A stretch of 32,197 nucleotides of DNA from a bacterium (lineage in GTDB: Bacteria > UBA9089 > CG2-30-40-21 > SBAY01), in assembly GCA_040754115.1 (NCBI GenBank), contig JBFMDD010000032.1, positions 1 through 32,197 on the forward strand, written 5' to 3'. Position numbers and translations under genes: made by a program. Shown here in pieces: positions 2,734 through 31,528 of the stretch. The first letter of the stretch is position 1; the number at the start of each line of letters is the position of its first letter. The notes beneath the pieces were generated by a model. It made no database searches. It was not told where the DNA came from and saw nothing but the letters and a program-made list of their open reading frames with translations.

Positions 2734-3032
2734 GTAACCGTTCAGGGTGTAATGAAGGGAAAAGGGGAATAGTGGGAAAACCTGTTCCTGACAGGTTCAG
2801 GAAAGGGAAATTTATTTTTATGGAGAGGGATTTGATAGTTATTCTGGTGATTTCTTTCGGATATTTATTTGTAAGCGTCCACAGAAAATTGAAATTGGAA
2901 ATTAGAAATTGGGCTTTCACTTCTCTCCCTAATTTCTAATTTCAACTCTCTTTTCTTTCCGTAAGCTTTCAAACAAAAGTGAACCCTCCCAAATTCTTTA
3001 ATATTTTCCCTTACTTACCCCTGAACGCTTAC
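2734..3032 (+). mobile_element. MITE-like nested repeat, copy A (outer shell plus inner core with GAAATTR heptamer hairpin)
   Basis: Terminal inverted repeats are GTAACCGTTCAGGGTGTAATGAAGGGAAAA (2734-2763) and the reverse complement of 3004-3032, GTAAGCGTTCAGGGGTAAGTAAGGGAAAA. The inner core spans about 2822-2990, with its hairpin at 2884-2945 (GAAATTAGAAATT / AATTTCTAATTTC). The whole element is the reverse complement of copy B (10009-10271), with indels. No coding capacity. The stop codon of the DUF3307 gene (3029-3031) lies inside the right TIR. Confidence 0.8.
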
Positions 3033-3773: not shown

Positions 3774-4994
3774 CTACTTGTCACTTTCTCCTTTAATCAA
3801 TCCATCTTCATACGCCTTCAAAAATGCAGTTGCTACTTCTGAATCAAATTGAGAGCCAGCATGTTCTTTTATCTCATCTAAAGCCCGTTGATGCGGCAAT
3901 CCTTTACGATATGGTCTATCAGAGGTCATAGCATCAAATGTATCTGCTACTGCTAATATTTTACCTCCAATGGATATATCTTTACCTTGTAGTTTATTAG
4001 GATATCCATTTCCATCATATCGTTCATGATGTTGCCAGACACCTGGAACAATAGATTGTAATTGTTTTATTGGTCTAATAATTCCCGCTCCAATCTCAGG
4101 ATGTTTCTTAATTTGCTCAAATTCCTCATCTGTTAACTTTTCAGTTTTTCTAAGAATACTTTCATCAATTCCTATCTTACCAATATCATGAAGTAATCCT
4201 GCCAGTCTAATAGTTTCTTCCTCATCACTACTCAAATTTAATTTTTGAGCGATTGCTTGAGAATATTTCATTACCCGTTCACTATGTCCATGTGTATATG
4301 GGTCTTTTGCTTCAATAGTAGTAACTAAAGCCTTGATGCTGCTAAAGAATAGGTTTTTTAAATCCTCGTACAAGTGTGAATTTTCAATAGCAATTGCCTC
4401 TTGATTAGCCATTGCCTGCAGTAGTTCTAAATCATCTTTAGAGAACCTATCCTCTCCAATTTTATTAATAGCCTCTACTACCCCAATTATTCTGTTTTTA
4501 ATTAATAATGGGACACATAGAATAGATTTGGTTACAAATTTAATTTCCTCATCTATCCTGCGATCTTGAGAAAATCTTGGATCTTTACGAACATCCGCAA
4601 TTGAAATAGGTTGTTTGTTTTTAACTACCCACCCTGCTACCCCTTCACTGATAGGAAATCTAATCCTTTTTATCTCTTCTTTTTTCTCTCCCAGAGCTAC
4701 CTCAAACACAAATTCATTATGCTCCTCATCTATCAACATTAATGAAGATGCCTCTGCTTTTAATAGTTTAGTAGTAAGTTCCATAATTATAGGTAATAAT
4801 TCTTTTATGTGTAGAGTAGAATTAACAATTTGGCTTACTTCAACCAAAGATTCTAAAGTAGCCATCTTTTGACAAATGGCGTTAAAAGATTTATTAAATG
4901 AGTAAAATTTTTCGAGTTCAGTATAATCAAACTTTTTTACAATCTCTTTTTGTAATTCTTCTAATTGTGTTTGTGCTAATTTTAGTTCTTCCAT
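3774..4994 (-). CDS. GAF domain + HD-GYP domain protein (c-di-GMP phosphodiesterase type)
   Basis: HD-GYP motifs are present: HGHSERV, LHDIGKIGI, HHERYDGNGYP. The preceding region of about 150 aa (LMLIDEE..EFVFEVALG..GVAGWV) is GAF-like. The ATG overlaps the stop of the upstream gene by 13 nt. Confidence 0.85.
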   Translation of the reverse strand: MEELKLAQTQLEELQKEIVKKFDYTELEKFYSFNKSFNAICQKMATLESLVEVSQIVNSTLHIKELLPIIMELTTKLLKAEASSLMLIDEEHNEFVFEVALGEKKEEIKRIRFPISEGVAGWVVKNKQPISIADVRKDPRFSQDRRIDEEIKFVTKSILCVPLLIKNRIIGVVEAINKIGEDRFSKDDLELLQAMANQEAIAIENSHLYEDLKNLFFSSIKALVTTIEAKDPYTHGHSERVMKYSQAIAQKLNLSSDEEETIRLAGLLHDIGKIGIDESILRKTEKLTDEEFEQIKKHPEIGAGIIRPIKQLQSIVPGVWQHHERYDGNGYPNKLQGKDISIGGKILAVADTFDAMTSDRPYRKGLPHQRALDEIKEHAGSQFDSEVATAFLKAYEDGLIKGESDK

Positions 4995-7357
4995 TTTGAT
5001 AAAAATTCCTTTGCATAAATATCATCTGGACTAAGTTTTAATAAGTATTCAAACGCCTTTTTTGCCTCATCAATTTTCCCTTGATGGGCATAAATATTGC
5101 CTAATATCTTACATGTATTTGCATTTTCTGGGTTAAGGTGAAGGATAATTAAACATTGCTTAAGTGCCTCATCCAGATTATTTTCTTCAAGATAGAAAGA
5201 GACTAATCTTTCTCTAAGCCAGATAGTTCGAGGGCCGGATTCCTTAGCTAATAATTCCTTAATATCTGCTTTAATATCACCTTTGCCAGATTGTGCATAG
5301 GTTCGCATCAAATTGGTTAATGCCATAGAATAGTCAGGTTTAAGCCATAGTGCTTGTTTAAATTCCTTGATAGCCTCATCATATTTTCCAAGTCTTTGAT
5401 ACACCAATCCAATAGTATTATGTGGGTCTGGATTGTACGGGTCAACCTCTATTGCCTTTTTGAACGCCTTAACAGCTTTATCTAACTCTTTACCGCCCAA
5501 ATAGTATCCTGCACCTAAAATAGAGTTTCCTACACCATCATCAGGATTAAGAGCAATTAACTTTTGGGCTTGTGTAATAGTCTTTTTAATCCATACCTCA
5601 TCACCAGTATCCTGTGCATAATGTAAGTAGATAGAACATACCTCTCGATAATACTGAGTTTCGTAAGGATTAAATTGTAACGCTCGCTCAAATCTATATT
5701 GAGTGTCTTTTTTATACTCAGGAGGCATAGCCTGAAGTAAAGTTCCCTGTTCATAATTAAAATCAGCAATACATGGTCTTACAACTAATAAAATCCATAA
5801 CCAGATAGCCATTCCTATTGTAGCTAAAGAGATAATCCATCGCAATTCTTTAATTGTAATAGGTAGTGGAAAAGAAGTAGATTTAGCTCTAAATATCATT
5901 CCTGAGGCAAGGATAATCCAAAAGAAAGATGAAGAAGAAACACCAGTAGGACTGAAACTGTTTTGAATAAGATGAGAAAACAAAGCAGATAATAGTCCTG
6001 GAATAAGGAATTTTTCCATACCATCAGCATGCCAATAAGTCTTCAGGCAAATAATTATAAAAGTTATTAGCAGCCAGAGATAAATGATTAATCCAATAGT
6101 CCCTCTTGATACCCAAATATCTAATAACTCATTATGAACACTGGCAGCAGTAGCATAAGCTCCCTCTGCCATTGCAGATTCTACAGGTTTATACCGTGAA
6201 TGAATAATACCGACGGTATCTAACCCTATACCTAAAATTGGGTAGTCAAGAATGATATTTAATGCACCTTGCCATATGTATATTCGCGGATTTAACTTAG
6301 CCATAGAAGTAGCGGTGAATGTCCCAACTTCAAAAGGAGATACCTGTTTTGGTGGCGAAGGCTTAAAAATAGTTGCAAACCTACCAATTACAGCTAATTC
6401 TGGATTTATATTTGAAAAGACTAAATAGCAAAGAAAAATTACACCAAATATTCCTAATAACTGTCTTTTATAAGTAATTATCTTCTTTCCTAATAAAATC
6501 CCTATTAACGCAAGTCCTCCAACCATACCCAGAAAAGGTGCTCGACTGGCTGAAAAACAAAATCCATATAAAATTATACCAATACATATTCCATATACCC
6601 AAAAAGGTATTTTCTCTATTTGAGTTTTAGGTTGTTCAGGATATTGTAGAGTAACTCGTCTCTTTTTCTTTTTCTTTTTTGAAGGCACGGTATGTTTCTT
6701 TTCTTGCTTGTGTGTAATTTCTCTTGAGAAGAACATACATATTGTTATTCCTAACACCATAATAATATAATTCCCAAAACCAATAGGGTTGCCTAAACTT
6801 GATGATACTCTACCCCCAGTGAATAACTCCCATTTTACCGGGTCAAGACCATAATGTTGGATAATACCATAGCCTGCAACTAAAACACCACTAAGGATAA
6901 TTACATTAATAAACCAGAGAACTAATTCTTTATTTATAAAATTAACCACACAATAAAATAAAAATATGTAGTTAATCACTACAAGTAACCCTTCAAAATG
7001 GCCATAAAAGCCAAATAGGCTGATTATTGGGTTAATAGAAAAGATAGTAGCAATTATACTAATTAATAAGAAAGCAAGTATTGGAATATCAATAGGCGTT
7101 CTTACAAATTTAAGCTCTCTTGTAAAGACAATCTTGACTATCCATGTAATTGCAATAATCAGTGATAATGTGTACATAAAGGCTATCTTTTGGAGATCAA
7201 GGGCATTAATATTCAACCCGAAAAATAAAGGGATAGTAAATACCATTACCACTATACAGCTCACAATAACTCTATCATAGAGAGGTAATCGTTTACATCT
7301 GTAAAAGGTGATAGAAAATACTATTAATATCATACAGCCAATGATAAACATATTCAT
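4982..7357 (-). CDS. O-antigen ligase (Wzy_C) family polytopic membrane protein with C-terminal TPR repeats
   Basis: Wzy_C-type motifs are SASRAPFLGMVGG and VHNELLDIWVSRGTIG, with many TM helices. The C-terminal roughly 250 aa are TPR units (AVKAFKKAIEVDP, AIKEFKQALWLKP, AKKAFEYLLKLSP). It is a paralog of 7372..9633 and 18435..20945, sharing the N-terminal motif E(L/F)(K/Q)F(V/I)R(T/S).(I/L)D.P(I/V)LAFL. The RBS AAGGAG lies in the 14-nt gap upstream. Confidence 0.8.
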   Translation of the reverse strand: MNMFIIGCMILIVFSITFYRCKRLPLYDRVIVSCIVVMVFTIPLFFGLNINALDLQKIAFMYTLSLIIAITWIVKIVFTRELKFVRTPIDIPILAFLLISIIATIFSINPIISLFGFYGHFEGLLVVINYIFLFYCVVNFINKELVLWFINVIILSGVLVAGYGIIQHYGLDPVKWELFTGGRVSSSLGNPIGFGNYIIMVLGITICMFFSREITHKQEKKHTVPSKKKKKKRRVTLQYPEQPKTQIEKIPFWVYGICIGIILYGFCFSASRAPFLGMVGGLALIGILLGKKIITYKRQLLGIFGVIFLCYLVFSNINPELAVIGRFATIFKPSPPKQVSPFEVGTFTATSMAKLNPRIYIWQGALNIILDYPILGIGLDTVGIIHSRYKPVESAMAEGAYATAASVHNELLDIWVSRGTIGLIIYLWLLITFIIICLKTYWHADGMEKFLIPGLLSALFSHLIQNSFSPTGVSSSSFFWIILASGMIFRAKSTSFPLPITIKELRWIISLATIGMAIWLWILLVVRPCIADFNYEQGTLLQAMPPEYKKDTQYRFERALQFNPYETQYYREVCSIYLHYAQDTGDEVWIKKTITQAQKLIALNPDDGVGNSILGAGYYLGGKELDKAVKAFKKAIEVDPYNPDPHNTIGLVYQRLGKYDEAIKEFKQALWLKPDYSMALTNLMRTYAQSGKGDIKADIKELLAKESGPRTIWLRERLVSFYLEENNLDEALKQCLIILHLNPENANTCKILGNIYAHQGKIDEAKKAFEYLLKLSPDDIYAKEFLSKWKN

Positions 7358-7371
7358 CTTCTGGCTCCTTT

Positions 7372-9633
7372 TTACCTTGTTATCATACCAAGCATTTGTT
7401 TTGCATAACTGTTCTGCGGGTCGACCTTTAAAACTGCCTCAAACTCATGCCTTGCTTTATTAAATATTTGTTGATTGATATAAATAGTGCCTAAGTTATT
7501 ACGGGCAAAAATATTGTTTGAATCTAATTCAATTGCCTTTTTAAATTGAGTTTCTGCCTCTTTATATCTTTTTTGGTCGAAGTAAATTTTACCTAATTTG
7601 TTATAAGAGTCTGGTTTTTGAGGGTTATATGCAATAGCTTTTTTTAAAAGCTCTATTGCTTTATTTATCTGGCCTTTAACTTGATATAATTCACCTAAGA
7701 TTCGTAAGTAATTAGAATCATCTGGAAATATAGCAGAGGCTTGTTCCATTTCTCTAATTGCCTCATCATATTTTCCCTGTCTGACATAAATAGCAGCAAT
7801 ATTATTATGTGGGTCGGCAAATAGTGGTTTATATTTAATTGCATTTTTAGAGGCTTCAATTGACTTGTTAGCACAGCTCTCATCTCCACGAACATATTTC
7901 TCTCCATAAGCAGAACTTAAAAGATTGTAATAATAAGGATGAAGTGGATTACACCTAACTGCTTCCTCTCCTTTGGCAATAAGCATATCTAACCAATACA
8001 TATCTTGAGTTTGATTAAATTTAATATTATATGCATTCAAAATCTCACCATAATAAAATTCTTCACCAGGATTATACTCTAATGCCTTTTCATAACTGGC
8101 AATAGCCTGATCAATATTATTATAATGTACCATTGCTAACCCATTTTTATAGTAAATATCTGCAATATATGGTCGTAAAGATAAAGAAATGAGTTGGTAA
8201 ATTAAAATCAATAAAGGGATACATATTACAATACGAATAATAATATGTACTCTAATGGGTTTAGTCATTTGAGGTTTGGGCATACCGATAGGGATTGCCA
8301 TACCTAATAATAACCAGAATAAAGAAGATGTCCCAATGATTCCAAAGCCAACTTCATTTTGTACAAGATAAGAGATTATAGCGGCTAATACACCAACTAA
8401 TAAAATCTTGTTTTCTTGTTTAATTGAGGAATAATTTTTATATACAAATATAAATAGTAAAATTATAATCCAGAAGTATGCAGCTAATCCTAATAGTCCA
8501 CGAGTTATAGCCATATCTAAGGCTTCCATATGCGCCTTGTCAATCAGGCAATTTCTGCCCCCTTCTGAACGAATAAATTCAATATTTTCATACTTAGTAG
8601 AAACCATCCGTAAGGCATCCGGTCCTACTCCTAAAAAAGGATGTTCTTTTATAATCCGCAGTCCGGTTTGCCAGATATAAACTCTTGTCTCGGCAGTGCT
8701 GGTAAGTCTTATTGTTGGAATAGCTTTCCCTTCCTCTTTCTCTACTGCAATTGTTGATGTAAACTTTTTCACTAAACCCGATTCTCCCTTTAGGAAAAAT
8801 ATTCCAGTAGCAACACTCATAATTACAAAAAGTATTGAAAATCGTAGCTTCATTTTAAGAAATTGTTTCACTAATAGGATGCCAAATAAAAGTATTCCTG
8901 TACCAAGTCCAAGTGCTCCTCCTCGATGAGCAAGTAGAGAAAAGCATTTATAGATTAAGAGAAGACTTATCAAAGAAGTAGCTAAAAAAATAATTTTTTT
9001 TACCATAGTGTGCTTCTTTGAATATGGCAGGAGGAATAGAGTTAAAGGGAGAAAGAAAACCATAGCTAAATAGCCACCTACGAAATTAGGATTGCCAAAA
9101 GTAGAAATTAACCCAGATTCCCATTTGGTTAAATCAATTCCATAGAATTGCAATATTCCACAACCAGCAACTAAGACTCCAGCAAAAGTGATAAAACCAA
9201 TAGTTCTTTTAAGATATTTGCGTTGCCTTAAAAAATTAACCGCAATATAATATATAAAGATATAATTAACAGTGCTAATTAATCCATCGTATCTTTTGTA
9301 TTCGCCTACCAGACTCATATACGGATGTACACCATTTATTGTAGCGGCGATACTTATAATTAAAAAGGCAAGTATCGGGACATCAAGTGGGGTTCTTATG
9401 AACTGAAATTCATTTGTAAATGTAATTTTTAAACACCAAATTCCAAGAATAATAAGTGTCAATACCCGCATAGCAGTTACTTTTGCTAAATCAAAACTGG
9501 TTATATGTGGGTCAAAGAGAAGTGGGATTATTAAAAACATTAAAACCAAAATAACAATAATTACTCTATCGAAATATTCACTAATTTTCTTTGAGTGTTT
9601 TAATAGATTCCTTGAAAGCTTTGATATATTCAT
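7372..9633 (-). CDS. O-antigen ligase (Wzy_C) family polytopic membrane protein with C-terminal TPR repeats
   Basis: Motifs LAHRGGALGLGTG and KAHMEALDMAITRGLLG are Wzy_C-type. It shares the N-terminal motif EFQFIRTPLDVPILAFLIISIAATI with its paralogs, and the C-terminal half is TPR. Confidence 0.8.
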   Translation of the reverse strand: MNISKLSRNLLKHSKKISEYFDRVIIVILVLMFLIIPLLFDPHITSFDLAKVTAMRVLTLIILGIWCLKITFTNEFQFIRTPLDVPILAFLIISIAATINGVHPYMSLVGEYKRYDGLISTVNYIFIYYIAVNFLRQRKYLKRTIGFITFAGVLVAGCGILQFYGIDLTKWESGLISTFGNPNFVGGYLAMVFFLPLTLFLLPYSKKHTMVKKIIFLATSLISLLLIYKCFSLLAHRGGALGLGTGILLFGILLVKQFLKMKLRFSILFVIMSVATGIFFLKGESGLVKKFTSTIAVEKEEGKAIPTIRLTSTAETRVYIWQTGLRIIKEHPFLGVGPDALRMVSTKYENIEFIRSEGGRNCLIDKAHMEALDMAITRGLLGLAAYFWIIILLFIFVYKNYSSIKQENKILLVGVLAAIISYLVQNEVGFGIIGTSSLFWLLLGMAIPIGMPKPQMTKPIRVHIIIRIVICIPLLILIYQLISLSLRPYIADIYYKNGLAMVHYNNIDQAIASYEKALEYNPGEEFYYGEILNAYNIKFNQTQDMYWLDMLIAKGEEAVRCNPLHPYYYNLLSSAYGEKYVRGDESCANKSIEASKNAIKYKPLFADPHNNIAAIYVRQGKYDEAIREMEQASAIFPDDSNYLRILGELYQVKGQINKAIELLKKAIAYNPQKPDSYNKLGKIYFDQKRYKEAETQFKKAIELDSNNIFARNNLGTIYINQQIFNKARHEFEAVLKVDPQNSYAKQMLGMITR

Positions 9634-10008: not shown

Positions 10009-10271
10009 GTAAGCGTTCAGGTGTAAGTAAGGGAAAATGGAAGAGCAGGGAAAAAGGGGAAAAATATTAAAGAATTTGGAACGGTTCACTTTTGTTTGAA
10101 AGTTTGCGGAAAGAAAAGAGAGTTGAAATTCGAAATTAGAAATTAGGGAGAGGACTGAAGACCTAATTTCTAATTTCCAATTTCTAATTTCTGCAAGAAA
10201 TCATAGGAAAAACGATAAAATGAGCCGTCCCTAAATTTCCCATTTTCCCTTCATTACACCTGAACGGTTAC
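10009..10271 (-). mobile_element. MITE-like nested repeat, copy B (inverted relative to copy A)
   Basis: It starts GTAAGCGTTCAGGTGTAAGTAAGGGAAAA and ends TTTTCCCTTCATTACACCTGAACGGTTAC. The inner core spans about 10078-10231, with its heptamer hairpin at 10124-10192 (GAAATTAGAAATTAGG / CCTAATTTCTAATTTC). The element ends 20 nt before the -35 box of the VWA gene promoter. Confidence 0.8.
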
Positions 10272-11401: not shown

Positions 11402-12054
11402 ATAGTTTATGTATTAAGGTATTTATTTTAATTACTTCCTTTCTCTTTATAGGATTTGGGGATAGCCTTACTTCTAAGAACAAGGCTGGAAATAAACTTT
11501 ATGAGCAAGGGAAATATGATGAGGCATTGGCTAAATATCGCGATGCACAACTTGATGAACCTGAATCACAGGAACTATATTTTAATATAGGTGATATTTT
11601 ATATAAAAAGCAAAGGTATGAAGAGGCAATTAAAGAGTATCAAAAGGTACTAACAAGTAAAGATACTCTCCTGCAAGCTAAAACTTATTATAATATTGGT
11701 AATTGTCAATACAGAGCTGGTAAATTAGTCGATGCAATTACCTCTTACAAAAAATCATTAGAGATTAACCCGAATGATTTAGAGGTAAAGTATAATTTAG
11801 AGTTTGTGCGTAAGAAGTTAAAAGAATTAGCACAAAAACAACAAGAGAAAAAACAGTCAGCCCAAGCCGATAAGCAAAAACAAAATGAGGAAAGAAAGAG
11901 AGGGAAACAAGTCCAAAAAGAAAAAGACAAAAAGAAGATGTCTAAAGAAGATGCTAAACGAATATTAGAGGCTTTGGAAGAGGATGAAAAGGATGCTCAA
12001 AAGCGCAAGCAACTACAAATGAGTGGTGCTAAACAGGTAGAAAAAGATTGGTAG
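11395..12054 (+). CDS. TPR repeat protein with Lys/Glu-rich tail (BatC-like)
   Basis: It has a signal/TM N-terminus, three TPR units (ALAKYRDAQLDEP, AIKEYQKVL, AITSYKKSLEINP), and a charged tail (QQEKKQSAQADKQKQNEERKRGKQVQKEKDKKK). The ATG overlaps the VWA stop (ATGGTGA), and GGAGG lies upstream. Confidence 0.75.
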   Translation: MVNSLCIKVFILITSFLFIGFGDSLTSKNKAGNKLYEQGKYDEALAKYRDAQLDEPESQELYFNIGDILYKKQRYEEAIKEYQKVLTSKDTLLQAKTYYNIGNCQYRAGKLVDAITSYKKSLEINPNDLEVKYNLEFVRKKLKELAQKQQEKKQSAQADKQKQNEERKRGKQVQKEKDKKKMSKEDAKRILEALEEDEKDAQKRKQLQMSGAKQVEKDW

Positions 12055-12055
12055 A

Positions 12056-12231
12056 GACGGTTCATTTTATCGTTTTTCCTATGATTTCTCTCGGATATTT
12101 ATTTGTAAGCGTCCACAGAAAATTGAAATTGGAAATTAGAAATTGGGCTTTTACTTCTCTCCCTAATTTCTAATTTCCAATTTCAACTCTCTTTTCTATC
12201 CGCAAGCTTTCAAACAAAAGTGAACCGTCCC
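12056..12231 (+). mobile_element. MITE-like core element, copy C (core only, same orientation as A)
   Basis: The ends are GACGGTTCATTTT (12056-12068) and AAAGTGAACCGTCCC (12217-12231), which are inverted. The hairpin spans 12125-12184, built from GAAATTG/GAAATTA units against TAATTTC/CAATTTC units. The element starts 2 nt after the TAG stop of the TPR gene. Confidence 0.8.
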
Positions 12232-12240
12232 GATTGGTAG

Positions 12241-12484: not shown

Positions 12485-12496
12485 TGCGATTTTAGA

Positions 12497-12643
12497 AACG
12501 GCTCACTTTAGCGTGAAAGCTTGCGGTTAAAAAATGGATATGAAATTAGAAATTGGGGAAAGAGGTGAAGACCTAATTTCCAATTTCTAATTTCTAATTT
12601 CCAAAGGAAATCACAGGGAAAAACGATGAAAATAAACCGTCCC
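12497..12643 (-). mobile_element. MITE-like core element, copy D (core only, inverted relative to C)
   Basis: It runs AACGGCTCACTTT ... AAATAAACCGTCCC. The hairpin spans 12542-12602 (GAAATTAGAAATTGGGG / CCTAATTTCCAATTTCTAATTTCTAATTTCC). The flank GCGGTTAAAAAATGGATA (12523-12540) recurs at 32169-32185. Confidence 0.75.
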
Positions 12644-12646
12644 TAA

Positions 12647-12676
12647 ATAGCTCAGTTAATGGCAGTGTTCAGTATA
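12647..12676 (+). repeat. Short dispersed module ATAGCTCAGTTAATGGCAGTGTYCRGTATA (copy 1)
   Basis: 12647-12676 matches the reverse complement of 31935-31963, with 2 mismatches that I can see. Confidence 0.6.
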
Positions 12677-17460: not shown

Positions 17461-17481
17461 AAGGTATTATCTCCCTTTAAT

Positions 17482-17528
17482 TTGGTAATTGGTAACTGGT
17501 TACCATTTAACCAATTACCAGTTACCAA
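17482..17528. repeat. Heptamer-built hairpin (GGTAATT/GGTAACT units) between yidD and yidC
   Basis: TTGGTAATTGGTAACTGGTTA (17482-17502) faces TAACCAATTACCAGTTACCAA (17508-17528). This gives 21 positions with one T.G and one C.A mispair, and the loop is CCATT. Alternative registers are possible because the arms are 7-nt repeats. Confidence 0.8.
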
Positions 17529-18235: not shown

Positions 18236-18260
18236 AAAAATATCCTCACTTATTAAATTA

Positions 18261-18373
18261 AGTAGAGAGTAGAGAGTAGAGAGTAGAGAGTAGAGAGTAG
18301 AGAGATTTTTGGTTGACTATTTATCAGTCTTCTTCACATTTCTCTCTACTTTCTACTCTCTACCCTCTACTTC
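18261..18373. repeat. Inverted heptamer array: (AGTAGAG)x6.3 facing 4 imperfect CTCTACT-type units, about 36-nt spacer
   Basis: 18261-18304 is agtagag repeated 6 times plus ag. 18343-18370 reads tctctac tttctac tctctac cctctac. The array lies entirely between the promoter at 18384-18412 and the rpmH start. Confidence 0.9.
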
Positions 18374-18383
18374 TTAAAAAGAT

Positions 18384-18412
18384 ATTATACCCTAAAAATA
18401 CAATTATGTCAA
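18384..18412 (-). promoter_or_regulatory. Consensus sigma70-type promoter TTGACA-17-TATAAT for the rpmH operon
   Basis: The minus strand reads TTGACA (18412-18407), the 17-nt spacer taattgtatttttaggg, and TATAAT (18389-18384). The predicted start near 18377 gives a leader of about 140 nt made almost wholly of the heptamer hairpin. Confidence 0.65.
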
Positions 18413-18434
18413 TAAAGAATTTAAAATTTTTGTT

Positions 18435-20945
18435 CTATCTGGTCATAGAATCTACTACTTGTCTAAGTCCCGTATCCTCTGGGTGATATCTTAGATACAG
18501 TTCAAATTCACTTTTTGCTTTATAATATAAAGTAGCATCTTCATTTATTTGTCCTTTTGTTCTTTTACTTTCTGCTGCTCTAAAATAAGCAGCACCTAAG
18601 TCACGGCGGACATTTATATTTTTAGGGTCTATTTTAACTATTTCTTCAAATGCCTTTGAAGATTCATCATATTTGCCTTGTGAAAAGTATATCTCGCCTA
18701 ATCTATGATGAGCATTAATTAGGTCTGGCTCAACTGCAAGGGCTTTTTTTAGCCAATTAATTGCCTCATTATAGTCTCCCTTCTTAAAATAAATATCACC
18801 TATGGTTACTTTGCATTGTCCATCATTTGGTCTCATCTTTGCTACCTTTTTATACTCTGCAATAGCATTATCATACTCGTTATCTTTAGAATATAATGCT
18901 CCTAAGTTATTAAGTGGTTCTGCAAAGATAATATTATATTTTAATGCTGCATGATATGCCTCAATAGCCTTTTGTTTAGCTGTTTTAGAACCTACATCGT
19001 ACTCCAATGCATAAGTAGCTCCTAAAATATTATAAAAATAGCCATCTTTCGGATTAACCTTAAAGGCATCTTTTATACGATTAAATGTCTTACGAATCCA
19101 TTCCTTTTTTAGTTCTATTTGAGTCATGGGGATAGAAGCAGCTTTCTTATAATAGGTATATGTCAACTCACCGTAATAGTGTCTTTCTCTAAAATTGCGG
19201 TGTACTGCCTCTTCATACATCTTTAAAGCTGTATCTAAGTCTTGGTCATGAATTGCTTTTTCGCCTTTATTAAAGTAGTAATCTGCTCGATAGGGGAAAA
19301 GAGAAAGGTAACCTAATAAGCAAACTACTACAACGACTAAAGTAGCTAAACCAGTTTGAATAGGTGTAAGTCGAATGTAAAGAGAAGGCTTTTTATGTAT
19401 ATCAGGTTCTATTTTCTGAGGTGTAAGCCTGGTATAACCACAAACTACCATTGTCATACCCATTAAAGTCCAGTAAAAAGGAGTAAAAGAGACAACTGCA
19501 AAGGCAAATTGATTTTGCACTATATACGCTGTCCAGCCAGATAGAAATCCAGCTATTAGTAATTTATCTTTTTCTACTGGGGCACGAAGGTACCCTCTAA
19601 TAGCCAGATAAATAAAAGCACCTAATAACCAAAGATAGATTGCCAACCCTCCTAAACCTCTTGTAACAGCCATGTCAAATACTTCATTATGAGCTCTATC
19701 GTAGTCAACATTATATCCTTCTAATTTCTCCATACCAGGTAGTTCATAAAGAGGATATACCCACTTCATAGTATCTACTCCTACCCCAAATAATAACCCA
19801 CAATAAGGGAAAGTCAGTGGGCCACGAATTGGTCCATCTTGAGGATAATGAGCAATAATTATAGCCGAATTCCGCCATATAAAGTATCGAGAGCCAAGTG
19901 CTCCTATAAGTTTATTTATCAACCAATTTTTTTTAGGCTGAGTAGATTCTGAAATTTCCTCTTCCCCAGTAATCACCTTCTGAAGGATTTCTCCCTTTTC
20001 TTCTTTAGCTGACTTGATAACATTAACCATTCGTTCTGCTACTGAACCCGGTTGAAGGCAAAGATAACCTGTAAATATTAAAAATGTTAAACTAAATACC
20101 ATAGCCCTCTTTCGAGTATAAATAAATGCCTTTTTAGTCCACAGAGTAGCAAATAGAATTATGCCTGCTAATAAACCTGCCAGAGGCCCACGGCTTTTTG
20201 CTAAGAATAAAGATGCGTACATAGTAATTAAAGCTATTCCAAATAACCAACTCTTTATTGTCTCCTCTCTACCTTTATGAATAAGCTTTTTATTCTTTGC
20301 CTTTTTCTTTGGAATAACTTTCTGCAGAATATCTTCCTTTATAAAGAAATATCCTATTGTTACCGGGATAATTGTAGCTAAGTATGCACCCAAAAATATA
20401 GGGTTACCAAATGTAGCCACAGCCCTTTCCTGGACATCCGCAGCCCAGGATATAGGGTCAAGACCTGCTCTTTGAACAAATGTGTAAAAAGAAGCTATGA
20501 ATCCAACTCCTATTCCTACATAAGCTGTTAGATTAAGTAATTTGCGATTATTATGTAAGAAATTAGTTGCAGTAAAAAATAGCAGTACATAACAAATAGT
20601 TGTGGTTAACCCTTCATGCCTTTTATAAGCACCAACTATACTTGTAAATGGGTCAACTGAGAATATTGTCGAGACAATGCTGACTAAAAGAAAGGCTAAA
20701 ACAGGTAAGTCCAATTTACTACGCACAAATTTAAATTCATTGGTTAAAATTATTCGCAAAAGCCATGCACCTATTATAACTAATGAAAATAGGCGCAATA
20801 AAGTCACCTTCGGAATGTCAAATACACCTCTACAGTGGGTGTCAAAGTAAAGCGGAACAACAAGAAGTAATCCTAAAAAAGCCCATTCAACTACTTTAGT
20901 ACAAATATCTTCTATCTTCTTCTTATTCATTTTTTCCAACTCCAT
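18435..20945 (-). CDS. O-antigen ligase (Wzy_C) family polytopic membrane protein with C-terminal TPR repeats
   Basis: Motifs LAKSRGPLAGLLAG and RAHNEVFDMAVTRGLGG are Wzy_C-type. The N-terminal EFKFVRSKLDLPVLAFLLVSIVSTI is shared with the two paralogs at 4982-9633, and the C-terminal roughly 280 aa are TPR. No SD precedes ATG 20945. Confidence 0.8.
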   Translation of the reverse strand: MELEKMNKKKIEDICTKVVEWAFLGLLLVVPLYFDTHCRGVFDIPKVTLLRLFSLVIIGAWLLRIILTNEFKFVRSKLDLPVLAFLLVSIVSTIFSVDPFTSIVGAYKRHEGLTTTICYVLLFFTATNFLHNNRKLLNLTAYVGIGVGFIASFYTFVQRAGLDPISWAADVQERAVATFGNPIFLGAYLATIIPVTIGYFFIKEDILQKVIPKKKAKNKKLIHKGREETIKSWLFGIALITMYASLFLAKSRGPLAGLLAGIILFATLWTKKAFIYTRKRAMVFSLTFLIFTGYLCLQPGSVAERMVNVIKSAKEEKGEILQKVITGEEEISESTQPKKNWLINKLIGALGSRYFIWRNSAIIIAHYPQDGPIRGPLTFPYCGLLFGVGVDTMKWVYPLYELPGMEKLEGYNVDYDRAHNEVFDMAVTRGLGGLAIYLWLLGAFIYLAIRGYLRAPVEKDKLLIAGFLSGWTAYIVQNQFAFAVVSFTPFYWTLMGMTMVVCGYTRLTPQKIEPDIHKKPSLYIRLTPIQTGLATLVVVVVCLLGYLSLFPYRADYYFNKGEKAIHDQDLDTALKMYEEAVHRNFRERHYYGELTYTYYKKAASIPMTQIELKKEWIRKTFNRIKDAFKVNPKDGYFYNILGATYALEYDVGSKTAKQKAIEAYHAALKYNIIFAEPLNNLGALYSKDNEYDNAIAEYKKVAKMRPNDGQCKVTIGDIYFKKGDYNEAINWLKKALAVEPDLINAHHRLGEIYFSQGKYDESSKAFEEIVKIDPKNINVRRDLGAAYFRAAESKRTKGQINEDATLYYKAKSEFELYLRYHPEDTGLRQVVDSMTR

Positions 20946-20953
20946 TTATTTAG

Positions 20954-20999
20954 TGATTGGTGACTGGTAATTGGTTAAATAGTTACCAGTTACCAATCA
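20954..20999. repeat. Heptamer-built hairpin (GGTGACT/GGTAACT units) overlapping the GH57 stop codon
   Basis: TGATTGGTGACTGGTAA (20954-20970) pairs with TTACCAGTTACCAATCA (20983-20999), giving 17 bp with one G.T. The loop is 12 nt. The TGA stop of GH57 is 20999-20997. The hairpin ends 8 nt upstream of ATG 20945. Confidence 0.85.
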
Positions 21000-23591: not shown

Positions 23592-26024
23592 ATGATGATT
23601 AATGAAATTATGAGTTGTTTTTTGCCTGGAATTATTACTATCCTGTTTATCTTGTTACTTATATTTTACAAGGAAATTGTCCATGTAATTGAACAATGGA
23701 TTAATAAATTTACACAATGGTTTTCGATTAATGTGTTAAAATCGTATGATAAAAGTCTTAACCAGTACCTTAAAACTCTTACATCTCAATTACAAGAGGA
23801 TATTATCGCTTGTAGAGTTTTGGGTGAAAAAATAGACTTAGAAAAAAGCTATATCAGTCTTAAATTAAAAAATAAGGAATATCCTGCTATCAAAATTAGT
23901 GAACAAAAGGAGTATGAAGTTGAAGAAATTTTAAAAAAGGAACAGGAATTTGGAAACATACTGATGCTAATTGGTAAATCAGGCTCAGGTAAAACTACCA
24001 TCCTTAAACACTTAGCTTATACAGTTAGCTTAGGAAAGGGTATTCGCCACATTCCTGTATTTATCACTATTACACAATGGGTAGAAAAGAATTTAAGTTT
24101 AGTGGACTATATTTTTCATATTATCTCTAAAAATGGCTTTCAAGGAACGCTCAAATTTATAGAAAATAAACTTTCAGCAGGAAAATTCTTAATACTGCTG
24201 GATGGATTTGATGAGGAATTTAAAAAACAAAAAGAAATAATAGAGCAAATTGAAACCTTTGCTAATCACCCAAGATATAAAAAGAACAAAATTATAGTTA
24301 CCTCAAAGCCTATTCTTGATACTATTGAACTTGCTAATTTCAAGCAATTTGAGATATTAGAGTTAAACAATAGACAACAAAGATTATTTCTTGAGAGTAA
24401 AATTGGTAAAGAAAGTGATTTTGACTTTGATAGATGTAGAGAATTAATTGTAGCTATTGAACAAGATAGTAAAGTTGAACATTTAGCTCGAAATCCACTC
24501 CTGCTTACTTTTATCTATCATATCTTTAAACATAATTTGGAATTACCCAAAAGGTGTGTAGATATTTATGAGCTATGTACTAACCTGATGATAAAGAGAG
24601 ATAAAGAGCTACAAATTGATATATTAAAAAATGTAGCATATCATTACCATCTTAATCGAGTTATAGAACTTGATATAAAATCATTATTAAAGATAATCGA
24701 GGAAAGTATATCTGATTTTACTTCACTTTCATTACTTAAAGACTTTGAAAGTAATGGTATTATCCGTAAAAAGACTTATACTACCTACGAGTTTATCCAC
24801 CTTACCTTTCAAGAGTATTTAGTAGCTGCCTATATCAACGATAATAGAAAAGATAGAGAAAAGATTTTATTTGAGAATATAGGAGATTACTGGTGGGAAG
24901 GAGTTATACTACTTTATGCAGGGATGAGTGGTGATGCCAGTAGCTTTATTAAGAAGGTGCTAAAGAGCAATGCAGAAATTACAAGTAAATGTTTGCTTGA
25001 GGTGGAAACTTTAAATAATGATGTACGGGATGAAGTTTTGAAGAAATTGATAGAAACCTCTGATGGTGCGGATAAAGAGCTATTTGATAAGATATTTGAA
25101 TCATTATCAAATGGAGATATTAATTCTGTACTTATTCAAGGATTACAAACCACTACAGATAGAGAATTACGATATCGGATTGTCAAACTTTTGGCAAATA
25201 GATTTAAAAAAGGAAGTAAGGAATTAGTTGATGTTATGAAACAAGTATTTGAGAAAGATACCTATGGAAATACACTTTATTTTGCTATGCAAATCTTAGA
25301 GAAAATTGACACCCCTGAAGCAACAGCAATAATTAACTCATTTAAAGGTAGTGGTAAATCCAGTGTATCAACACAGATGGCATTGATACCAGCAGGTAGA
25401 TTTTTGATGGGCAGTCGCAAAAATGAAGGTTTTGAATCAGAACACCCTATTCATGAGATTCACTTAGACATATTTTATATGGATAAGACATCAGTAACTA
25501 ATGCTGAATATGAAAAATTTGATCCTGGCCATGAAAGATGTTGGGAGGATGAAGGAGATAATCATCCAGTAGTTAATATTTCATGGTATGAAGCTTACAT
25601 GTACGCACTGTGGTCTGGAAAACGGCTACCAACTGAGGCAGAATGGGAAAAGGGAGCGCGAGGAACAGATGGACGCAGGTATCCATGGGAAAATATGTTT
25701 GACGCTAAAAAATGTAATACAAGTGAAAGTAAAATTGGTAAAACAACACCTGTAAGAAAATATAGTAGTATTGGAGAAAGCCCTTATGGGTGTTTGGATA
25801 TGGTTGGTAATGTATTGGAATGGTGTGAAGATTGGTATGATGAAAATTATTATACCAACACTACAGATAGAAATCCCACAGGACCAGAAAAAGGAATTTT
25901 TCGAGTATTGCGTGGTGGGGCGTGGAACCTTGACAAGAATAGTGCAAGATGTGCCTGTCGTTTGAATGCATATCCAGATTATAGAAGCAACTGTGTAGGA
26001 TTCCGCTGTGTTAGAACTCCTTAA
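23592..26024 (+). CDS. Membrane-anchored STAND NTPase: N-terminal TM helix, NACHT module, HEAT-like repeats, C-terminal FGE-sulfatase (SUMF1/C-type-lectin fold) domain
   Basis: The TM helix is SCFLPGIITILFILLLIFY (aa 8-26). Walker A GKSGSGKTT is aa 128-136 (nt 23973-23999) and Walker B LILLDGFDE is aa 200-208. The NACHT-type ARNPLLL is near aa 299-305. The helical-repeat region spans aa ~455-585. The FGE fold spans aa ~596-809: MALIPAGRFLMGS, HPVVNISWYEAYMYALW, RLPTEAEWEKGARG, YPWEN, GNVLEWCEDWY, RVLRGGAW, GFRCV. Confidence 0.85.
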   Translation: MMINEIMSCFLPGIITILFILLLIFYKEIVHVIEQWINKFTQWFSINVLKSYDKSLNQYLKTLTSQLQEDIIACRVLGEKIDLEKSYISLKLKNKEYPAIKISEQKEYEVEEILKKEQEFGNILMLIGKSGSGKTTILKHLAYTVSLGKGIRHIPVFITITQWVEKNLSLVDYIFHIISKNGFQGTLKFIENKLSAGKFLILLDGFDEEFKKQKEIIEQIETFANHPRYKKNKIIVTSKPILDTIELANFKQFEILELNNRQQRLFLESKIGKESDFDFDRCRELIVAIEQDSKVEHLARNPLLLTFIYHIFKHNLELPKRCVDIYELCTNLMIKRDKELQIDILKNVAYHYHLNRVIELDIKSLLKIIEESISDFTSLSLLKDFESNGIIRKKTYTTYEFIHLTFQEYLVAAYINDNRKDREKILFENIGDYWWEGVILLYAGMSGDASSFIKKVLKSNAEITSKCLLEVETLNNDVRDEVLKKLIETSDGADKELFDKIFESLSNGDINSVLIQGLQTTTDRELRYRIVKLLANRFKKGSKELVDVMKQVFEKDTYGNTLYFAMQILEKIDTPEATAIINSFKGSGKSSVSTQMALIPAGRFLMGSRKNEGFESEHPIHEIHLDIFYMDKTSVTNAEYEKFDPGHERCWEDEGDNHPVVNISWYEAYMYALWSGKRLPTEAEWEKGARGTDGRRYPWENMFDAKKCNTSESKIGKTTPVRKYSSIGESPYGCLDMVGNVLEWCEDWYDENYYTNTTDRNPTGPEKGIFRVLRGGAWNLDKNSARCACRLNAYPDYRSNCVGFRCVRTP

Positions 26025-26062: not shown

Positions 26063-26170
26063 TTGATCGTATAGTAATAAAATTAGAGTAGAGATTTTAA
26101 TCTCTATTTTTAGAGGATAAATCCTCTACTCTATTAAAGTTATCAAGCGAAGCGAGATTTTTTGCTTGAC
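26053..26170. repeat. Nested inverted repeats flanked by the direct repeat ATTTTTTGCTTGA
   Basis: The direct repeat occurs at 26053-26066 (aattttttgcttga) and 26156-26169 (gattttttgcttga). Inverted pairs are GCTTGAT/ATCAAGC (26061-26067 / 26142-26148), TAGAGTAGAG/CTCTACTCTA (26084-26093 / 26124-26133), AGAGAT-TTTA-ATCTCT (26090-26105) and AGAGGAT-AA-ATCCTCT (26112-26127). Confidence 0.75.
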
Positions 26171-26303: not shown

Positions 26304-26352
26304 GGAGTGACAGCACTTGTGCTGTCAATGACACCACAAGTGGTGTCACTCC
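26304..26352 (+). promoter_or_regulatory. Twin 18-bp inverted repeats enclosed by GGAGTGA/TCACTCC, ending 28 nt upstream of the FliO-like ATG (operator- or RNA-structure-like)
   Basis: The twin repeats are GACAGCAC-TT-GTGCTGTC (26309-26326) and GACACCAC-AA-GTGGTGTC (26330-26347), separated by AAT. The outer pair is GGAGTGA (26304-26310) with TCACTCC (26346-26352). Function is unknown. Confidence 0.45.
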
Positions 26353-31385: not shown

Positions 31386-31528
31386 CTCTCGGATAAAAAT
31401 AAGGTTCAAGGAGAAAGGAGCAAGGGAGAGTAATCTTGTACCTTGATCCTTGTTCCTTCGGTGGGGGTGAAGAAGGAATTATCTGCTCAGAAAGGCTAAT
31501 AAAATCAACGCTCAATTTTATCCGAGAG
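31386..31528. mobile_element. 143-bp TIR-bounded MITE-like insertion with AAGGnnn heptamer hairpin (element E)
   Basis: CTCTCGGATAAAAAT (31386-31400) is inverted against ATTTTATCCGAGAG (31515-31528). The inner arms are AAGGTTC AAGGAGA AAGGAGC AAGGGAG (31401-31428), facing the reverse complement of TTGTACCTTGATCCTTGTTCCTT (31436-31458), which reads AAGGAAC AAGGATC AAGGTAC AA. The CTCTCGGATA motif is shared with the core element (12088-12097). Confidence 0.7.

Follow-up and report, generated by a model that had tools for sequence, protein, structure and literature searches.

The leader of the rpmH-rnpA operon on contig JBFMDD010000032.1 (GenBank assembly GCA_040754115.1; its whole stretch of 32,197 nt is referred to here as the window) contains a long hairpin whose two arms are arrays of a 7-nt unit in opposite orientation. 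This rpmH array is probably (with a probability of about 0.6) an inverted pair of heptameric simple sequence repeat (SSR) arrays, one member of a class abundant in intergenic DNA across this uncultured, low-GC lineage, and one that has recently settled in a permissive leader. The element is probably tolerated, with at most a mild, unit-number-dependent tuning of rpmH-rnpA expression. Its distribution suggests that it is no dedicated, conserved regulator of ribosomal protein L34.

The 5' arm of the hairpin (minus strand, 18370-18343) consists of four purine-rich units, GTAGAGG, GTAGAGA, GTAGAAA and GTAGAGA (Tandem Repeats Finder [TRF] 4.3 copies, 82%). The 3' arm (minus strand, 18303-18262) is made up of six perfect TCTCTAC units (TRF 18261-18304, period 7, 6.3 copies, 100% matches), which are followed by the tail TTAATTTAATAAGT and then by the Shine-Dalgarno (SD) sequence GAGGA (minus strand, 18247-18243). 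The two arrays lie 39 nt apart, and two extra GA/UC pairs reduce the loop to 35 nt (minus strand, 18340-18306). This loop contains its own 5-bp hairpin at 18329-18315. An earlier reading of the same DNA (the original prediction) had listed four GTAGAGR units, a loop, six TCTCTAC units and an SD sequence, and all of these are found at or near the positions proposed. The loop between the arms is present as described, but its size is not the 36 nt that had been given.

The 153-nt leader RNA has a predicted minimum free energy (MFE) of -61.4 kcal/mol (z = -6.63 relative to dinucleotide shuffles), and none of 200 shuffles folds as well. Both the MFE structure and the ensemble contain a 33-bp main stem (pair probabilities 0.999) in which 18374-18341 is paired with 18305-18271 (both minus strand; the 3' side comprises UC, 3' units 1-4 and part of unit 5). 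Starting about 4 nt from the predicted 5' end, the stem is still formed at 80 C in the model. Several near-isoenergetic pairing registers had been proposed for this leader. Folding does not bear this out: when registers are enumerated for a transcript beginning near 18377, pairing of the four 5' units with 3' units 1-4 has a probability of 0.999, the loop-proximal register accounts for 99.95% of the ensemble, and slips of one and two units cost 4.7 and 6.6 kcal/mol, respectively. The leader RNA would thus adopt a single dominant register. A search of the Rfam families gave no match at the gathering score, and the sub-threshold matches were to generic microRNA-precursor hairpins on both strands.

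The hairpin lies downstream of a TTGACA-17-TATAAT promoter (minus strand, 18412-18384). Its -35 hexamer (minus strand, 18412-18407) is invariant in a six-lineage alignment, and its -10 hexamer (minus strand, 18389-18384) follows a 17-nt spacer that ends in the conserved sequence ...ATTTTTAGGG. This is the sole 12/12 consensus match in a 10-kb scan, and the number of perfect sites expected by chance from base composition is approximately 0.03 per window. The promoter block TTGACAtaattgtatttttagggTATAAT is identical in the related loci L001 and L002 and near-identical in L003, L004 and L087, the RnpA proteins of which are only 78-87% identical. Because it is kept nearly base for base in all five, this is very likely a real sigma-70 consensus promoter, in agreement with the original prediction. 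The predicted transcription start zone (minus strand, 18374-18378) lies 6-10 nt past the -10 hexamer and is placed by promoter geometry alone. As a promoter scan found no second promoter-like site between the array and the rpmH ATG, the array is likely to be transcribed as a 5' untranslated region (UTR) from a start near 18377. With the transcription start being a predicted one, this geometry fits an SSR lying between a promoter and a start codon.

The same promoter core (TTGACAttaactaATTTTTAGGGTATAAT) serves a cold-shock protein (csp) gene with a 5' UTR of approximately 200 nt in L085 (minus strand, 7517-7270), a related metagenome contig in which the ATTTTTAGGGTATAAT core drives this gene. 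Within this group, ATTTTTAGGG in the spacer seems to be a mark of strong promoters. A metagenome scan with the conserved promoter pattern returned one csp promoter, one chance match within coding sequence and no additional rpmH leader. The window has one more perfect TTGACA-17-TATAAT promoter, at 2626-2598 (minus strand). Its -10 hexamer ends just 11 nt short of the start codon (ATG at 2586) of a TMEM260-like/TPR gene, such that mRNA from this promoter would be nearly leaderless. The first approximately 16 codons of this gene contain a heptamer array, (CAGAAAA)4 (minus strand, 2576-2538), that encodes a Lys/Arg-rich tail.

Nine related loci were compared on the basis of RnpA homologues with 67-87% identity, and the orthologous leaders compared were those of L001, L002, L003, L004, L087, L090 and L093. 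The GTAGAGR/TCTCTAC hairpin is absent from all seven. Leader lengths are approximately 27 nt in L004, 33 nt in L002, 48 nt in L003, 53 nt in L001, 141 nt in the window and 200 nt in L087. A contig from metagenome run X1 joins window position 18245 to position 18383 via 23 nt, which corresponds to a short L002-type leader with no hairpin. The leader of L087, the closest relative, is unrelated to that of the window and lacks significant structure (z = -1.1). Homology between these two leaders was considered and rejected, as the two sequences align convincingly only at the ends and the L087 leader has no significant structure. L090 and L093 have different sequences upstream of rpmH, and that of L093 includes a single GATRACA x4 array. 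The SD/start block AAGTGAGGATATTTTTATG, which contains the GAGGA sequence and is identical in L087, is conserved among the five relatives that share the promoter block. Because the promoter and SD blocks are kept while the leader between them is not conserved, the rpmH array is, as far as these alignments tell, a recent and lineage-specific addition to a freely changing spacer.

A role of the array as a leader special to the L34/RNase P protein operon is not supported, given its absence from the seven orthologous leaders and from the X1 joint and the presence of similar hairpins in unrelated spacers. An autoregulatory ribosomal protein leader was likewise rejected, given that the structure is missing from L001-L004, L087, L090 and L093 and has no Rfam match. 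Relatives occur in hot-spring metagenomes, and a scan of genome contigs for close genomes returned no RnpA above 49% identity.

The second line of evidence is the abundance of such hairpins in the window. At least eight inverted heptamer-array hairpins, including that of rpmH, are detected in the 32-kb contig by TRF and an inverted-repeat search. A TTGGTAA hairpin of the TGGTAAY family (minus strand, 17480-17527) fills the yidD-yidC spacer, and another hairpin of this family (minus strand, 20950-20998) fills the spacer between a GH57 gene and a Wzy-TPR gene. An AAGGAGM hairpin (plus strand, 31408-31458) lies between gpsA and an HU gene. Four GAAATTR hairpins (2884-2943, 10121-10192, 12118-12184 and 12541-12601) are contained in copies A, B, C and D, respectively, of an element that resembles a miniature inverted-repeat transposable element (MITE). 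With at least seven further heptamer hairpins in unrelated spacers of the same contig, the leader array belongs to a class and is not a one-off. All eight hairpins are intergenic, although intergenic DNA makes up 11.5% of the window; the probability of this by chance is approximately 3e-8, or 2e-5 if counted by families. Together, the hairpins account for 14% of the intergenic DNA. A further, three-way hairpin (H9, 26084-26133), located upstream of a promoter-like TTGACA at approximately 26166, is similar to the rpmH unit in its outer stem (TAGAGTAGAG/CTCTACTCTA). H9 was left uncounted as a class member as it has a period of 5 instead of 7.

Period 7 is the prevailing repeat length in the window, with runs totalling 474 nt as compared to 59, 180, 61 and 21 nt for periods 5, 6, 8 and 9, respectively. 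The density of period-7 runs is 59 per 100 kb for the window, 57 for close relatives and 7.8 for diverse bacteria, and that of inverted heptamer pairs is 15.5, 8.8 and 0.4 per 100 kb, respectively. Relative to the control set (473 kb of rnpA loci from diverse bacteria), period-7 runs are enriched approximately 7.5-fold and inverted pairs approximately 20- to 40-fold, whereas periods 5, 6, 8 and 9 are unenriched. These enrichment figures cover the one window contig and seven related loci.

Hairpins of this class fold stably (z from -4 to -11) and do so about equally on both strands. An RNA-level strand bias, in the form of sense-only G-U wobble pairs, was looked for and rejected: none was found, and two hairpins (H6 and H7) are slightly better on the antisense strand. 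The order of the arms is uniform. In 13 of 13 hairpins from the window and its relatives, the G/purine-rich array is 5' of the C/pyrimidine-rich array, and this holds for either strand. These 13 hairpins span at least nine independent unit families, and the window alone contains at least five unrelated units. In the yidD-yidC spacer, the hairpin unit differs between lineages: it is TTGGTAA in the window (17480-17527), GAAGACA in L002 (1179-1271) and CAGGTAT in L088 (4058-4180), while a relative in the hot-spring run X3 has a different 88-nt insert and L001, L003 and L004 have none. Judging by these sequences, the spacer is one that has been refilled independently in different lineages.

The heptamer unit looks native to the rpmH leader. 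The sequence AAGTAGAG is located right after the -10 hexamer in L001, and AAGTAGGG is located at the SD sequence in both L001 and L002. The most likely route to the present array would be slipped-strand expansion of the AAGTAGAG seed, of which relatives keep single copies at the same place. Hairpin-templated copying would then build or extend the complementary arm, and the six perfect 3' units, as compared to four imperfect 5' units, look like ongoing expansion. The array would have arisen in this way in an insertion-tolerant spacer between the conserved promoter and the conserved rpmH SD sequence. Unit gain and loss do occur in this genome, as paralogous copies of the MITE-like element differ by exactly one heptamer. 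The same heptamer appears to have expanded independently in another 5' UTR, because (GTAGAGA)4 is found in unrelated high-GC viral contigs. In two IMG/VR contigs (L096, 344-371, and L094, 1636-1663), this direct array stands immediately 5' of an SD sequence and start codon (AGGAGCACACAACATG).

Stems near the 5' end shield mRNA against 5'-end-dependent decay, and stems of more than 20 bp are typical substrates of ribonuclease III (RNase III). The 33-bp stem near the 5' end would be expected to protect this end of the rpmH mRNA and, at the same time, to serve as a target of a double-strand-specific RNase. Two surplus UCUCUAC units are left outside the main stem and would pair weakly with the SD sequence. 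A small hairpin predicted at 18268-18244 (minus strand, -6.2 kcal/mol) pairs unit 6 and the adjoining UUA with UAAGUGAGG, and the model predicts this SD-masking helix to have melted by about 70 C. In silico, the cost of opening the SD sequence is 1.3-1.6 kcal/mol with four or fewer 3' units and 4.4-6.0 kcal/mol with five or more. This step is in keeping with the original prediction that gain or loss of a unit would alter the structure next to the SD sequence. The modelled values suggest that the surplus units partly mask the SD sequence and lower its accessibility.

Several points weigh against the interpretation of the rpmH array as a recently settled member of a lineage-wide SSR class. The genome-wide extent of the class is extrapolated from one 32-kb contig of this genome. 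None of the public sequencing runs searched for the locus holds it; the best shares 7% of sampled words, namely array/rpmH k-mers. A -60 kcal/mol stem and an SD-masking unit before an essential, highly expressed operon would seem costly if neutral. The uniform G-first polarity of the 13 hairpins is unexplained by simple slippage and hints at a directional mechanism or selection. Finally, the rpmH hairpin may have arrived as a mobile element: the TGGTAAY and GAAATTR hairpins clearly occur as dispersed copies, and two short contigs from run X3 contain both arms together with a loop that is about 75-80% similar to the rpmH loop.

These last two points belong to the strongest of the alternatives, in which a mobile or dispersed element of the MITE or REPIN type was inserted whole into the leader without any expansion in place. 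Such an origin is a possible but clearly less probable one. A 170-185-bp element that is bounded by terminal inverted repeats and has the GAAATTR hairpin as its core is present in four copies within 10 kb. The window has two TGGTAAY hairpins, this hairpin is also found in metagenome contigs with unrelated flanks, and (AGTAGAG)n arrays are found on hundreds of contigs with varying flanks in four metagenomes. Array matches alone are no proof of mobility, however, as unrelated high-GC viral contigs also contain (TCTCTAC)n in the form of plain direct arrays. A search of viral contigs for the hairpin pattern gave no match, and (TCTCTAC)4 is present there as direct repeats only. The rpmH palindrome has TTAA at both ends, but this tetranucleotide is common at 33% GC. 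Beyond the arrays, no terminal repeats are visible at the rpmH hairpin and there is no second copy in the window, which also encodes no transposase or RAYT-like gene. The match between the rpmH unit and the seed native to this leader in L001 and L002 argues for expansion in place. The four MITE-like copies are located at 2830-3010 (plus strand), 12045-12240 (plus strand), 10070-10250 (minus strand) and 12485-12655 (minus strand). Their terminal inverted repeats are GGGACGGTTCAYTTT ... AAAGTGAACCGTCCC, and a fragment of the end sequence is also present in L087 (5310-5345).

A selected slip-register or contingency rheostat, in which gain or loss of units, or the choice of register, would control how rpmH-rnpA is translated or its mRNA processed, as for the hmw genes of Haemophilus, is unlikely. 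The array does lie wholly in the predicted 5' UTR behind a conserved strong promoter, SD masking by the surplus 3' units is predicted, with the jump in opening cost between four and five units, and the six 3' units are 100% identical, as would be the case for an actively slipping tract. There is also a precedent in hmw1A, whose expression is inversely proportional to heptamer number and whose 5'-UTR hairpin is processed by RNase III (PMC12721329). On the other hand, the hairpin is found in none of the orthologous leaders examined, identical kinds of hairpin are present in functionally unrelated spacers, and slipping out of the favoured register costs 4.7-6.6 kcal/mol. At -6.2 kcal/mol, the SD-masking helix is weak and is predicted to be lost by approximately 70 C, and relatives are from hot-spring metagenomes. 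Stochastic switching of an essential housekeeping operon would have no obvious benefit.

The uniform polarity invites a broader proposal: that G-arm-first hairpins are built or kept by a directional mechanism or by selection and act as unit-countable post-transcriptional modules, with rpmH-rnpA tuned by repeat number. Each module would combine a stable 5' or intercistronic stem with surplus pyrimidine units that titrate the SD sequence. This proposal is a speculative one, and somewhat less probable again than a rheostat confined to rpmH.

It is improbable that the hairpin is a transcriptional attenuator or roadblock for transcripts that start at the rpmH promoter or enter from the Wzy-TPR gene upstream. 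In favour of this reading, the very stable stem (intact at 80 C in the model) precedes a pyrimidine/U-rich tail that comprises the surplus units and UUAAUUUAAU, and the G/purine-first polarity would yield a U/C-rich 3' tail on either strand. A terminator scan makes no call, however, and the stem is followed not by a U run but by UCUCUACUCUCUACUUAAUUU. Several hairpins of the class are located inside operons directly before start codons. Efficient termination would silence essential genes, as rpmH has no promoter-like site downstream of the hairpin. Because rpmH must be transcribed through the hairpin with no alternative promoter, the hairpin would not be a strong block.

Least probable of all is that the arrays are multimeric sites for a protein with a 7-nt footprint (of the cold-shock-domain or S1-like type) in a post-transcriptional network: although such binding has been proposed for the TAACTGA arrays upstream of Beggiatoaceae start codons, including those of ribosomal protein genes, with cold-shock proteins binding one protein per heptamer (PMC4679880), and Nostoc heptamer repeats near start codons affect expression (bioRxiv 10.1101/2022.06.06.494920), the at least five unrelated units in the window speak against one sequence-specific binder and the arrays are base-paired in the predicted hairpins rather than single-stranded.

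The genes downstream of the leader are rpmH (minus strand, 18235-18101; ribosomal protein L34, 44 aa), the L004 homologue of which matches PF00468, and rnpA (minus strand, 18097-17729; RNase P protein, 122 aa; PF00825). These are followed on the minus strand by yidD, yidC, jag and mnmE, in that order. Upstream of the leader, an 836-aa open reading frame (minus strand, 20945-18435; stop codon at 18435) has Wzy_C and TPR domains, which confirms that a Wzy-TPR gene and the array occupy the position 5' of rpmH. Synteny ends exactly at the rpmH promoter in the four loci compared: the upstream neighbour is the Wzy-TPR gene in the window, Tad pilus genes in L001, csp/FKBP in L003 and a nitroreductase gene in L087. 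In none of these four does dnaA adjoin the rpmH promoter. A search for DnaA boxes (TTATCCACA-like) gave no perfect match, and no box with one mismatch was found within 18236-18434; in the whole window, 18 one-mismatch boxes are scattered, with 10.8 expected. An oriC in the rpmH spacer was ruled out, as there is no DnaA-box cluster and GC skew merely tracks gene strand. With regard to its nearest homologues, RnpA is 67% identical to that of a metagenome-assembled genome (MAG) labelled Nitrospirota, and a search with MnmE returned entries named "MAG: bacterium" first, followed by Ca. Desantisbacteria at about 51-54% identity.

The Wzy-TPR protein is one of four large paralogous membrane proteins with C-terminal TPR arrays (minus strand, 157-2586, 4982-7357, 7372-9633 and 18435-20945). 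Three of these have the Wzy_C (O-antigen ligase-like) domain and one has a TMEM260-like O-mannosyltransferase domain. A (TTTTTTA)n array of approximately 7.7 copies (125-179) overlaps the 3' end of an 809-aa gene and is preceded at 50-120 by two short hairpins and an AGCTACA x3.9 array. A near-perfect palindrome with 24-nt arms (26304-26352; GGAGTGACAGCACTTGTGCTGTCA / TGACACCACAAGTGGTGTCACTCC) is located just upstream of a FliO-like gene (26381). TRF also reports it as a 21-nt unit in two copies, and it could be an operator or a double hairpin. The 810-aa protein encoded at 23592-26024 (plus strand) has a NACHT-type NTPase region and a C-terminal FGE-sulfatase domain.

This lineage provides a dense natural sample for asking why 7-nt units dominate and what inverted arrays do. 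Approximately one seventh of the intergenic DNA of the contig is heptamer hairpin, and the sample combines coexisting unit families, a single polarity and independent refilling of a spacer. The rpmH copy is a clean test case in that a recent insertion is bracketed by a conserved promoter, a conserved SD sequence and an essential gene. In annotation, a hairpin of this type should not be taken for a riboswitch-like leader specific to its gene.

Some resemblance exists to several known systems. Like the leaders through which ribosomal proteins regulate their own synthesis, the rpmH leader is a structured 5' UTR before a ribosomal protein gene. Those leaders are conserved, covary across taxa and mimic the rRNA site of the protein, whereas the rpmH hairpin is absent from orthologous leaders. 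Repetitive extragenic palindromic (REP) sequences, REPINs and the Correia elements of Neisseria are short intergenic palindromes that are co-transcribed with genes and form long mRNA stems. As might be the case for the window hairpins, these stems can alter mRNA stability or be cut by RNase III. Unlike the window hairpins, REP/REPIN and Correia elements have a conserved family sequence, defined ends and no internal 7-nt periodicity, and REPINs have a cognate transposase.

Tandem heptamers are known from cyanobacteria (short tandemly repeated repetitive [STRR] sequences) and from Beggiatoaceae (TAACTGA arrays). As in the window, these are abundant and intergenic and often stand just before start codons, and, like the rpmH array, some precede ribosomal protein genes (PMC4679880; bioRxiv 10.1101/2022.06.06.494920). 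Cyanobacterial genomes also resemble the window in having several unit families per genome. Arrays in both groups are overwhelmingly direct, whereas the hallmark of the window is the inverted pair. The Beggiatoa genome has 169 direct heptamer sets and one inverted set, with no predicted structure (PMC4679880).

Heptameric SSRs are over-represented in bacterial intergenic DNA, and the (GGGAATC)n arrays of Xanthomonas form 70-75 convergent inverted pairs per genome that are mostly transcribed and have no known function (PMC4692102). The length and sequence of these arrays vary between close relatives, and the same study reports no detailed studies of inverted heptamer arrays (PMC4692102). Xanthomonas and the window share a 7-nt unit, arrays mostly of two to six units, a strongly intergenic location and nearby opposite-strand arrays able to form stem-loops with the G-rich array first (convergent). 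They differ in that Xanthomonas has essentially one unit consensus, which is G-quadruplex-capable, whereas the window has at least five unrelated A/T-rich families, none of them prone to G-quadruplex formation. On these shared features, the Xanthomonas inverted pairs are the closest genome-scale analogue.

The original prediction knew of no described leader structure of this kind, but one is on record: hmw1A of Haemophilus influenzae has a heptamer-SSR hairpin that is transcribed as part of its 5' UTR (PMC12721329). In the long 5'-UTR hairpin formed by the (ATCTTTC)n tract of this gene, the number of paired units is fixed; RNase III processes the hairpin, and higher repeat number leads to lower expression (PMC12721329). 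As predicted for rpmH, its leader and those of hmw1A/hmw2A have in common a transcribed heptamer SSR between promoter and start codon, a long 5'-UTR hairpin with a fixed number of paired units, and surplus units outside it, such that the UTR changes with repeat number. The right arm of the hmw hairpin is a G-rich segment without repeats, whereas both arms of the rpmH hairpin are heptamer arrays. RNase III processing, inverse expression dependence and phase variation have been demonstrated for hmw, while the rpmH hairpin is known from sequence alone. The hmw genes encode a surface adhesin and are classic contingency genes, in contrast to the essential housekeeping operon rpmH-rnpA. By the likeness of its layout, the hmw1A 5'-UTR hairpin is the closest gene-level analogue of the rpmH leader.

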